Part shown: positions 34,883-36,451 of the stretch, piece by piece | How the letters are laid out: every line of letters starts with the position of its first letter | Numbering within the stretch: the first letter of the stretch is position 1 | Assembly (NCBI GenBank): GCA_944389225.1 | Contig: CALXLP010000004.1 | Coordinates: forward strand, 7,314 to 71,313 | DNA from: an uncultured Clostridia bacterium | GTDB lineage: Bacteria; Bacillota; Clostridia; TANB77; CAG-508 | Reading direction: 5' to 3' | DNA length: 64,000 bases | The notes under the pieces: model-generated | Told to the model about the DNA's origin: nothing | Seen by the model: only the letters and a program-made list of their open reading frames with translations | Databases searched by the model: none | Translations under genes and position numbers: made by a program

Positions 34883-35239
34883 TTAGCCACCTAAAGTAGA
34901 TGTAAAATTGAATACGAATGTTGCGATTGTTGATGCTGCAAATACAAATGCTGCACCAATGATATATGGTAATAATGTCTTTTTGTATTCTGCTTTTTCT
35001 TCAGCACTACCCATCATGTATTTTATACCTAAAACAACTAAAACAACAACTGATGCAATTGATCCAATAGTACTTACAATTTGAATAATTTGGTTACCTA
35101 CTTTTTCAATAGAACTAACAGATGCTCCTGAACCAGTATATGAACCTGGTGCAACTCCTGATGTTGCTGCATTAACAGTTGCTGTTAATGCTATTAATAA
35201 TATCATCGCAACTAATAATATTTTTACAGTTTTTTTCAT
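34883..35239 (-). CDS. VirB2/TrbC-like pilin paralogue 4
   Basis: Signal peptide (ALTATVNA-AT), then two hydrophobic helices joined by GIKYMMGSAEEKAEYKKTLLPYIIGAAF; RBS AAAGGAGG before MKKTVK. Confidence 0.55.
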   Translation of the reverse strand: MKKTVKILLVAMILLIALTATVNAATSGVAPGSYTGSGASVSSIEKVGNQIIQIVSTIGSIASVVVLVVLGIKYMMGSAEEKAEYKKTLLPYIIGAAFVFAASTIATFVFNFTSTLGG

Positions 35240-35300
35240 GGCTTTTCCTCCTTTTATTTGTATATTCATTTGTTTTTTAGGTAATTTTATTATAGCACAT

Positions 35301-35660
35301 CTAAATATTTATTGCAAATTGGTAAATAATATTTGCTATACTTGATGCAGCAAATATAAATGCTGCTCCTATTAGATAAGGTAACATTGTTTTCTTATAA
35401 TCTGCTTTTTCCTCAACACTACCTACCATATATTTTATACCTAAAACAATAATAACAATAACAGATAATATGGAACCTATTGTACTTACAATTCGAACAA
35501 TCTTGTTACCCGCTGTTTGTACAGTTAAAGTTCCCGCTGTATTTCCAGAAAGGTTTCCTATTGTAAAAGCTCTAGCTACATTTTCCGGTAAACACATATA
35601 TATTAATATACTAAGTATTACAATACTTATCATTATTTTTAAAAATTTTTTTATTTTCAT
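35301..35660 (-). CDS. VirB2/TrbC-like pilin paralogue 3
   Basis: MKIKKFLKIM... signal peptide; GIKYMVGSVEEKADYKKTMLPYLIGAAF motif; RBS AAGGAG. Confidence 0.55.
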   Translation of the reverse strand: MKIKKFLKIMISIVILSILIYMCLPENVARAFTIGNLSGNTAGTLTVQTAGNKIVRIVSTIGSILSVIVIIVLGIKYMVGSVEEKADYKKTMLPYLIGAAFIFAASSIANIIYQFAINI

Positions 35661-35671
35661 ATATCTACTCC

Positions 35672-36055
35672 TTATTGAATCATATTTATAACCAATTTCC
35701 AGATTGTAAAAGCTCCAAATACGACTACACAAGATACTATATATGCTGGTAATGTTTGCTTAATATCCGCTTTTTCTTCTGAAGTCGCTAACATATATTT
35801 TATACCTAGAACCATTCCTACAATTACTGCTATAATCATACTAATTCCTAATAGTACATTATATAAAAAGTCAGATGTATTAGATAAGGCTGTATCATCA
35901 ATGGTTGTATTAACACCAGCCTGTCCTCCCCCTTTATCTAAAAAATTATCGGCTCCTGTAAATATCTCATCAATAGATAAAGCTTGTACATTTGTTGGAT
36001 ATACAGCTATAAGAAATAGACTTAAGATACATATACAGATTATTATTTTTCTCAT
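35672..36055 (-). CDS. VirB2/TrbC-like pilin paralogue 2 (divergent)
   Basis: Signal peptide ending NVQA; GIKYMLATSEEKADIKQTLPAYIVSCVVVF motif. Confidence 0.5.
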   Translation of the reverse strand: MRKIIICICILSLFLIAVYPTNVQALSIDEIFTGADNFLDKGGGQAGVNTTIDDTALSNTSDFLYNVLLGISMIIAVIVGMVLGIKYMLATSEEKADIKQTLPAYIVSCVVVFGAFTIWKLVINMIQ

Positions 36056-36079
36056 ATATTTCCTCCCTCCATTTCTTTT

Positions 36080-36451
36080 TTAAAAACCTCCTATGATATC
36101 TATTACAATTCCTAGAATATTTGTTATTCCAAAAAGTAATACTGCCCCAATAAGGTATGGCTTTAATGTTTGTTTATATTCTGCTTTTTCTTCCACGCTT
36201 CCTGTTACATATTTAATACCAATTATGATTAATGCAATAACAGAACTAACTGACCCAATAATTTGTACAACACCAATAATCTTATTTCCTATATGTTCCA
36301 ATTTACTTGCACCACTTACACTATTGGTTGAGGATGGTTTATAATGTTCTGGGTTAAATGCGGTTGCTGCTTGTACTACCTGACTCATAAAAAGAATACA
36401 TAATATAAAAATAATACATATCACAATTAATTTCTTTTTATTTATTTTCAT
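36080..36451 (-). CDS. VirB2/TrbC-like pilin paralogue 1
   Basis: Signal peptide ending VVQA-AT; GIKYVTGSVEEKAEYKQTLKPYLIGAVLLF motif; RBS AGGAGGGTGG. Confidence 0.55.
   Translation of the reverse strand: MKINKKKLIVICIIFILCILFMSQVVQAATAFNPEHYKPSSTNSVSGASKLEHIGNKIIGVVQIIGSVSSVIALIIIGIKYVTGSVEEKAEYKQTLKPYLIGAVLLFGITNILGIVIDIIGGF

Follow-up and report, generated by a model that had tools for sequence, protein, structure and literature searches.

A putative pilin array in the origin region

Four tandem genes on the minus strand of a 64-kb stretch of contig CALXLP010000004.1, from an uncultured Clostridia bacterium (the whole stretch is called the window below), probably encode pilins of the VirB2/TrbC superfamily; they would belong to a chromosomal type IV secretion system (T4SS) with no relaxase nearby, kept by AT-rich, spore-forming gut Clostridia. 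The genes, named pil1 to pil4 in transcription order, lie head to tail at 36080..36451 (pil1, 123 amino acids (aa)), 35672..36055 (pil2, 127 aa, a divergent class), 35301..35660 (pil3, 119 aa, a duplicate of the pil4 type) and 34883..35239 (pil4, 118 aa, the last pilin and the candidate major one). Gene callers reproduced these lengths exactly on independent metagenome contigs. An earlier reading of the sequence alone had recognized the array; the sizes it gave, 120-127 aa, are corrected here.

The N-terminus of each protein consisted of a K/R-rich segment and then a hydrophobic stretch of at least 15 residues, and signal-peptidase-I sites of the AxA type could be read from the sequence at VQA/A in pil1 (residue 28), VQA/L in pil2 (residue 25), ARA/F in pil3 (residue 31) and VNA/A in pil4 (residue 24). 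The mature N-terminus that follows was hydrophilic, 17-35 residues long and different from copy to copy. A hydropathy scan detected two more hydrophobic segments in every pilin with a charged loop between them, in which the residues G-I-K-Y, E-E-K-A, K, T and Y were invariant across all four proteins. The full loop motif claimed by the sequence-only reading was found in pil1, pil3 and pil4; pil2 departs from it (GIKYMLATSEEKADIKQTLPAYIVSC). Ribosome-binding sites (AGGAGG, GGAGG, AAGGAG and AAGGAGG, respectively) were located 6-7 nt ahead of each ATG. Four tandem open reading frames (ORFs) with a signal peptide, two hydrophobic helices and a strong ribosome-binding site, as first described, were thus borne out by sequence reading and hydropathy.

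DNA identity among the four copies was 67-79% over 98-186 nt of the core, and mature-protein identity was 30-57%, with pil3 and pil4 as the nearest pair (57%) and pil2 as the most distant member. The DNA identity of the copies, the recurrence of the array in 77 other assemblies and the ratio of nonsynonymous to synonymous substitution rates (dN/dS) in the core show that the array is more than a chance arrangement.

Pilin family membership and predicted structure

All four proteins passed the threshold of the Pfam T4SS_pilin model (PF18895, 26.6 bits), scoring 31.7 (pil1), 29.5 (pil2), 36.5 (pil3) and 44.0 bits (pil4, E 2.4e-11). Three of the four also passed that of the TrbC/VirB2 model (PF04956, 27.9 bits): pil1 with 32.0, pil3 with 39.8 and pil4 with 43.7 bits (E 3.2e-11); pil2 was below it at 19.0 bits. 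Both models were matched over their full length. The pilin call of the sequence-only reading therefore came through the Pfam comparison that it had proposed as a check. Each protein further matched the NCBIfam 'Mbov_0395 family pilin-like conjugal transfer protein' of Mycoplasma integrative and conjugative elements, below its cut-off. When pil4 was modelled with AlphaFold2 from a 59-sequence alignment, a signal-peptide helix and a helical hairpin (H42-76/H79-117) were predicted with a mean predicted local distance difference test (pLDDT) score of 77. The cleavage sites read by eye, the hydropathy scan and this hairpin agree on the topology first proposed, a signal peptide and two transmembrane (TM) segments.

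Several results weigh against placing the proteins with known pilins and against what we build on that placement. An hhalign comparison with six annotated Agrobacterium-type VirB2/TrbC sequences was weak (probability 20%, E 1e-3), with TM1, loop and TM2 in register. PDB sequence searches with profiles of 4 and of 59 pilins returned no pilin, and a Foldseek search of the pil4 model against the PDB gave nothing at E < 1, a helical hairpin being uninformative for a fold search. Because direct matches to characterised or solved pilins are weak, membership in the VirB2/TrbC superfamily rests on the Pfam profiles and gene context, which support it; everything past family membership and gene context we infer. 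Two measures used below to assign roles come from short stretches: the codon-bias signal of pil4 from 21 codons only, and dN/dS of the N-terminal segments from 17-35 codons only. A relaxase or coupling protein could be encoded elsewhere in the genome, and a filament built from these subunits must cross a thick Gram-positive wall, for which there is no experimental precedent.

Other types of surface protein were considered and dropped. Lipoprotein processing was rejected as no lipobox was present, and sortase-type Gram-positive pili as there was no LPXTG motif and no sortase family in the window. Type IV and Flp pilins were dropped as well: the proteins lack a class III leader, and the window yielded no family of prepilin peptidases or GspE-type ATPases.

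Type IV secretion genes downstream of the array

The genes on the 3' side of the array and its terminator, all on the minus strand, encode in order a PrgI/VirB3-like protein, a TrsD-like protein, a VirB4-type ATPase, a fifth pilin-domain protein, a polytopic membrane protein of 622 aa, a single-pass membrane protein of 314 aa and a peptidoglycan hydrolase of 1230 aa. The four tandem pilin genes and the fifth pilin-domain gene all lie within 6 kb of virB4. The first product (34314..34661, 115 aa) is a small membrane protein that scored 24.8 bits with PF12666, just under the threshold of 27, so its assignment is borderline; the gene at the same position on Firmicutes plasmids is named PrgI family in RefSeq. 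The TrsD-like protein (p387, 33158..34321, 387 aa) consists of an N-terminal TM helix and a domain of the VirB4 N-terminal type, and its precomputed Pfam match is PF26593 (TraC-like). It was similar (BLASTP E 5e-10) to p173, a protein encoded across the origin that matches NCBIfam TrsD (E 1.7e-6) and the N-terminal part of VirB4 models.

The ATPase (31202..33145, 647 aa) contained P-loop_TraG, AAA_10 and DUF87 domains and matched the VirB4 structure 4AG5 (E 2.5e-26). Its NCBIfam matches, conju_CD1110 (E 6e-62; 210 bits, cut-off 325), VirB4_plasma (E 3e-54) and Mbov_0397, were all below the family cut-offs, indicating that it is a divergent relative. The fifth pilin-domain protein (p297, 30091..30984, 297 aa) was over the PF18895 threshold at 28.6 bits and matched the pLS20_p028 family weakly. 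It has Gly/Ala-rich TM segments, a small beta domain and a C-terminal pilin-like hairpin with the shared loop motif. Aligned to the pilin alignment with hhalign it reached a probability of 90% (E 1.4e-6); its AlphaFold2 model had a low overall pLDDT of 60, with 75-83 at residues 115-260.

The polytopic protein (28167..30035, 622 aa) occupies the VirB6 position, carries a long acidic repeat region, and is a candidate VirB6 from position and topology only. It is homologous to the large protein that follows VirB4 on a C. botulinum plasmid (E 8e-13) and was conserved in 65 of the 77 related loci. Within its gene, at 29051-29327, a tandem duplication of 136 nt (76% identical) encodes the repeated acidic peptide …EGFD.NALGEY.NP.T.EYDSEYNPL.DP…. 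The single-pass protein (p314, 27079..28023) was a cluster member in 58/77 loci; it and p450 are VirB8-like candidates, and searches with both gave no family or PDB sequence match. The membrane-anchored hydrolase (23369..27061) combines NlpC/P60 and M15 domains and is a VirB1 analogue. Its C-terminus matched the L-alanyl-D-glutamate peptidase 2VO9, and in plasmid modules hydrolases of varying type fill its position. At the far end of the cluster lie an ABC transporter pair (19546-21919) and a DnaJ-domain membrane protein (18756-19502), each present in one related locus only and therefore probably outside the system.

Distribution among related Clostridia

When one genome per species was scanned, 77 loci with related arrays were recovered from 77 different assemblies, all of which belong to uncultured Clostridia of the gut, sampled from humans, chickens, rabbits, ruminants and other animals. 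Their records are titled Clostridia, Clostridium, Eubacteriales or Lachnospiraceae, one (L063) being titled only 'uncultured bacterium'. Arrays of four pilins (40 loci) and three pilins (33 loci) prevailed; three loci had five and one had two. The downstream gene order was alike in essentially all 77 loci as far as the contigs reach, and the pilins were linked to PrgI-like and VirB4 genes in 70-72 of them. In L073 (1-11083) the pilin genes were on the strand opposite the PrgI-to-p314 genes, showing that the assembly genes can occur with the array in the reverse orientation.

An identical pil4 protein was encoded on at least 21 independent metagenome contigs. Of 1.84 billion cluster representatives, 6275 matched a profile built from the four pilins at E <= 1e-3; 3952 did so at E <= 1e-10. 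Certain representatives of 200-450 aa (P0169-P0172, P0177, P0192, P0202 and others) contained 2-5 pilin-domain matches per predicted protein; they could be true fusions, read-through gene calls or products of an alternative genetic code.

Transcription signals and division of roles among the pilins

The 61-nt gap before pil4 holds a promoter of the sigma-70 type with an extended -10 element (TTGCAA-17-TGCTATAAT, 35289..35317, minus strand), presumed to function from its match to the consensus. The GTG.TATAAT bases of the extended -10 element were invariant in the window and its four closest relatives (L001-L004), with diverging flanks, and this invariant promoter sits ahead of the last pilin only. 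A candidate promoter for pil1-pil3 (TTGCGA-17-TATAAT, 36515..36543, minus strand) was recognized by consensus match only. Behind pil4, at 34825..34866 on the same strand, an intrinsic-terminator hairpin whose stem pairs perfectly over 18 bp, with a loop of 6 nt and a U-run, had a minimum free energy of -23.4 kcal/mol (z = -6.4 against shuffles). The sequence-only reading was right about this terminator and misplaced it at 34811-34860 with a stem of 17 bp. When the 90 nt after the last pilin were folded, nine of ten loci showed a strong hairpin with a U-run, the stem sequences of distant lineages being unrelated; in 37/71 loci it was also picked up after the last pilin by a strict perfect-stem scan, which undercounts. 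The early view of a pilin sub-operon with its own terminator is supported: most related loci have a terminator-type hairpin behind their last pilin, and in the window and L001-L004 the invariant promoter lies ahead of this gene. Partial read-through from the pilin genes into the assembly genes is plausible.

Each paralogue had its own orthologue in the four closest relatives, with core identities of 75-95% and core dN/dS of about 0.1-0.25 for all four pilins. Proteins of the pil2 type formed a separate, old cluster of about 60 members, roughly one copy per array. The best match of a last-position pilin in another array was that array's last pilin in 72% of comparisons, position-3 pilins matched positions 3 and 4 about equally, and the pil3 duplicate was missing from three-gene arrays. 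These results show that the paralogues are old, are kept in a fixed order and have cores under purifying selection.

The orthologues of pil4 were 90-95% identical in the core and had the lowest synonymous divergence (dS) of the four. The dN/dS check that had been suggested for the variable N-terminus gave a divided answer: it was raised in pil4 (0.5-1.7 over 21 codons) and also in pil3, and pil2, whose mature N-terminus is longer and conserved across species, had values of 0.12-0.24. In low-GC Firmicutes, translational selection usually shows as a high use of C-ending codons for Phe, Tyr, Asn and Ile. The share of such codons in pil4 was the highest among 46 genes (0.33, against 0.05-0.21). 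Because pil4 has its own promoter-to-terminator unit and the strongest codon bias of the expression type, the evidence favours pil4 as the one bulk (major) subunit, with the other pilins as specialised low-abundance subunits that would not be interchangeable antigenic variants. The sequence-only reading had offered both possibilities; the old, ordered, orthologous types speak for its major-plus-minor set, and antigenic or receptor variation is not favoured.

A GT-C glycosyltransferase of the PMT_2 family (36988-38457, minus strand, 489 aa) is encoded a short way upstream of the array, with a homologue in 19/77 related loci. Because Ser, Thr and Gly abound in the mature pilin N-termini, O-glycosylation of the pilins is a speculative possibility.

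Proposed assembly and alternative explanations

Pre-pilins would leave by the Sec route, with signal peptidase I removing the leader after AxA, as the leader sequences suggest, and the mature pilin of ~90 aa would rest in the membrane as a helical hairpin, in line with the AlphaFold2 model and hydropathy. By analogy with Gram-negative T4SS pili, VirB4 and the VirB3-like, TrsD-like and polytopic platform proteins may then pull pilins from the membrane and stack them into a filament, which may exit through a breach in the wall cut by the 1230-aa hydrolase. The solved F and T pili are the basis for assigning a lumen-facing loop, lipid binding and an exposed N-terminus. On this analogy the lumen would be lined by the charged loop (GS.EEKA.YK.T), phospholipid would be bound there, and the filament's outside would carry the variable N-terminus; two T-pilus preprints report a protein-phospholipid stoichiometry and a charged lumen. 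With pil4 as the major subunit, pil1, pil2, pil3 and p297 would occur in low abundance and would start assembly, cap the filament's tip or adapt the filament itself. The most likely role, by analogy with the proposal for Patescibacteria, would be cell-to-cell contact with uptake or exchange of macromolecules.

It is unlikely, in our estimate, that the proteins are of the VirB2 family and build no extended pilus, acting as a short conduit across membrane and wall or as a stalk-like part of a translocon. The thick wall, the large dedicated wall hydrolase in the cluster and the long, membrane-anchored fifth pilin-domain protein would all suit such a conduit. Some VirB2 mutants reportedly uncouple transfer from pilus formation, which counts in the same direction. 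VirB2 is also needed for substrate transfer in many Gram-negative systems (PMC12857230). However, a high-expression unit devoted to a single paralogue suggests a demand for bulk subunit, and the fast-evolving N-terminus of pil4 would face outward; filaments typically show both.

A cassette for antigenic or receptor variation, in which interchangeable major pilins are expressed alternately as has been proposed for Bartonella and Anaplasma, is less probable still. The mature N-termini do differ among the paralogues, the N-terminal segments of pil4 and pil3 had elevated dN/dS, and the hosts live in animal guts. However, the paralogues are old, with orthologue cores 75-95% identical and paralogue mature parts only 30-57% identical; the types hold their order across species, pil2 stands apart as a class whose N-terminus is conserved, and, apart from the coding similarity itself, neither an invertible element nor a repeat for recombination came to light. 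Bartonella and Anaplasma resemble the array in having several virB2 copies in tandem (cited in PMC12102498); those copies belong to Gram-negative effector translocators and are interpreted as antigenic variants, whereas the Clostridia copies are old, ordered, orthologous types.

We give equally little credence to the idea that the cluster is the mating-pair-formation (MPF) module of an integrated or decayed conjugative element, with pilins that serve conjugation. VirB4 relatives on Clostridium plasmids were 42% identical, and 919 of the 1660 matching plasmid records were typed conjugative. Two tRNA-Ser genes, classic integration sites, lie just upstream of the array (gct and tga, 36658-36747 and 36808-36899, minus strand, between the glycosyltransferase gene and pil1), and a second, split VirB4 gene lies across the origin. 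However, Pfam scans of 52 of the 57 window ORFs of at least 100 aa revealed no relaxase, coupling protein or integrase family in the 64 kb, the five unscanned ORFs all overlapping scanned genes. Classic self-transfer is therefore unsupported. No att-like repeat was detected, and no direct repeat of the tRNA-Ser ends was present at the far side of the cluster, which leaves a simple tRNA-integrated island unsupported. A scan of IMG/VR viral contigs gave no relatives, and a phage origin was dropped.

The setting of the array is that of a replication-origin region of an AT-rich chromosome (25.6% GC). The start of the array, pil1, lies 11.8 kb from dnaA. The plus strand carries dnaA, dnaN, recF and gyrB; the minus strand carries rnpA, yidC, jag, mnmE, mnmG, rsmG, parA, parB and a DUF4446 gene, after which come the PMT_2 glycosyltransferase gene, the tRNA-Ser pair and the pilin array. 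The host lineage is taken to be spore-forming because SpoIIR and a GerM-type protein are encoded in the window. Among the 60 related loci with at least 3 kb of upstream sequence, parB was upstream in 30, and in 25 of those the tRNA-Ser pair lay between. The two non-origin contexts that we examined had housekeeping neighbours (PRPP synthetase, Lgt, FtsH and NrdD). These housekeeping flanks in both contexts, the parB-adjacent position in 30 species, purifying selection on all parts and the non-mobilizable typing of the closest plasmid modules examined argue against a conjugative element. The T4SS with the pilin array thus reads as a resident, conserved chromosomal system and not as a recently integrated element.

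Lastly, that these are generic small membrane proteins with pilin matches arising from hydrophobic composition is hardly credible and already largely refuted: they are short and hydrophobic and gave no specific structural or PDB sequence match, but two independent Pfam pilin models were passed along their entire length, conservation lies in the polar loop and not in the hydrophobic helices, the linkage to PrgI-like and VirB4 genes recurs in the great majority of loci (70-72/77), and a PF18895 protein stands at the same position in plasmid modules of other Firmicutes orders.

Plasmid modules in cultured Firmicutes

VirB4 relatives on plasmids of cultured Firmicutes were 30-42% identical to the VirB4 of the window. 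A tblastn search with pil4 against 72,556 plasmids gave nothing at E <= 1e-3; the plasmid pilins were found through VirB4 context and Pfam only. The modules share a gene order with the Clostridia cluster: a small PF18895-matching protein, PrgI or a substitute, a TrsD-like protein, VirB4 (DUF87) and a large membrane protein, while a wall hydrolase comes last or nearly so. They were observed on T. saccharolyticum pMU3262, C. perfringens pJFP838A, B. thuringiensis BTB_502p, C. difficile BI1 and C. botulinum pINGR16-02E1, five large plasmids all typed non-mobilizable. The PF18895 match was over threshold on pMU3262 (two copies), pJFP838A and BTB_502p and under it on the C. difficile and C. botulinum plasmids, and RefSeq labels all of these pilin genes 'hypothetical protein'. 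Unlike the Clostridia arrays of 3-5 pilins, the modules have one or two pilin genes and are plasmid-borne. Upstream of the module, clpX was present on the C. perfringens and B. thuringiensis plasmids, and a gene of the sigma-70 family on the C. perfringens and C. difficile plasmids.

Comparison with known systems and significance

Current reviews describe Gram-positive T4SSs as lacking VirB2 (PMC12857230, PMC12102498), in agreement with a remark of the sequence-only reading; a review of December 2025 excepts Patescibacteria (PMC12857230), whose T4SSs it regards as unique among monoderms in their potential for conjugative pili. The Patescibacteria T4SS is chromosomal, often near dnaA, dnaN and rnpA, has no relaxase and comprises VirB4, TrsD, PrgI/VirB3, VirB6 and 2-11 VirB2-like pilins; it is essential in the patescibacterium Ca. 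Southlakia epibionticum ML1 (PMC12102498, PMC12857230). Judged by parts and setting, it is the closest described system to the one reported here: both have the same parts, including wall hydrolases and tandem divergent pilins recognized by PF04956/PF18895, and both are chromosomal and origin-proximal with no relaxase nearby (here, in the 64-kb window). However, the Patescibacteria hosts are ultra-small epibionts and ours are spore-forming Clostridia; the Patescibacteria arrays hold 2-11 genes averaging 25% identity, against 3-5 conserved types with 30-57% identity; and in the Clostridia locus alone of the two a conserved internal promoter and a terminator frame the last pilin.

The A. tumefaciens VirB2 and RP4 TrbC pilins (MPF-T) share with the Clostridia proteins the Pfam family (three of the four pilins), a signal peptide with a two-helix hairpin, and virB3/virB4 neighbours. 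However, profile similarity is weak, and the Clostridia pilins have a longer mature N-terminus and a longer charged loop. Their leaders are 24-31 aa, whereas that of A. tumefaciens VirB2 is reportedly about 47 aa. The outer-membrane core genes VirB7, VirB9 and VirB10 of MPF-T are absent from the Clostridia cluster. With the Gram-positive conjugative T4SSs (pCF10, pIP501, pGO1 and Tn916; MPF-FATA and MPF-FA) the cluster shares a monoderm-type VirB4, a PrgI-type VirB3 and a membrane-anchored multi-domain hydrolase, and with the pGO1 subclass also TrsD. Those systems are described as relying on adhesins in place of VirB2 and reside on mobile elements with a relaxase and a coupling protein; in the 64 kb around the Clostridia cluster no relaxase, coupling protein or sign of a mobile element was found. 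The archaeal Ced/Ted DNA-import systems are said to be chromosomal and relaxase-free, with a VirB4-type ATPase, a VirB6-type protein and VirB2-like pilins. Their hosts are archaea, and the likeness, by description only, offers a precedent for an import function.

No description of VirB2-like pilins in Bacillota was found in the searchable literature. Precomputed Pfam matches and one JGI product name already label such proteins pilins, so the recognition is new to the literature and not to databases. Since both the Clostridia arrays and the Firmicutes plasmid modules carry pilin-domain genes, the statement that Gram-positive T4SSs lack VirB2 fails at the sequence level. The 2025 survey of Patescibacteria left open whether their pilins were borrowed from diderms, because MPF-FATA systems were thought to have none (PMC12102498); pilin arrays in at least 77 uncultured Clostridia species bear on the origin of that system. 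We put forward tentatively, as a possibility with the odds against it, that spore-forming gut Clostridia have vertically kept a non-conjugative, pilus-building T4SS at the origin, as a Firmicutes counterpart of the essential Patescibacteria T4SS. If so, VirB2-type pili would be ancestral and widespread in monoderm T4SSs and would have been overlooked, the Patescibacteria system would have had no need to borrow diderm pilins, and the pilus may serve these Clostridia in contact-dependent uptake or in exchange with neighbour cells. Through the single-pilin plasmid modules of such strains as B. thuringiensis Bt407, C. perfringens JP838 and T. saccharolyticum, it would become directly testable whether Gram-positive T4SSs build pili, and their cultured hosts could show whether a T4SS pilus crosses a thick cell wall. 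The array also flags a conserved candidate surface structure in common gut bacteria.

Other features of the window

A second VirB4-type gene was located at 55475-57822, directly after gyrB, where gyrA is usual. It is split into a 173-aa N-terminal part (p173) and a 514-aa ATPase, which matched conju_CD1110 (E 5e-80) below the cut-off, and it was the sole other VirB4-like ATPase found in the window. It may be a remnant of another T4SS-bearing element at the origin. Beyond it, a stretch of about 5.5 kb (58000-63500) had a GC content of 8-13% and a strong A-over-T skew on the plus strand. It contained one ORF of at least 60 aa (translation table 11), and its start fell inside a K/I/N-rich, low-complexity ORF at 57815-58825. 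A decayed or foreign insert of AT-rich DNA, or an oddity of the assembly, would account for its appearance.

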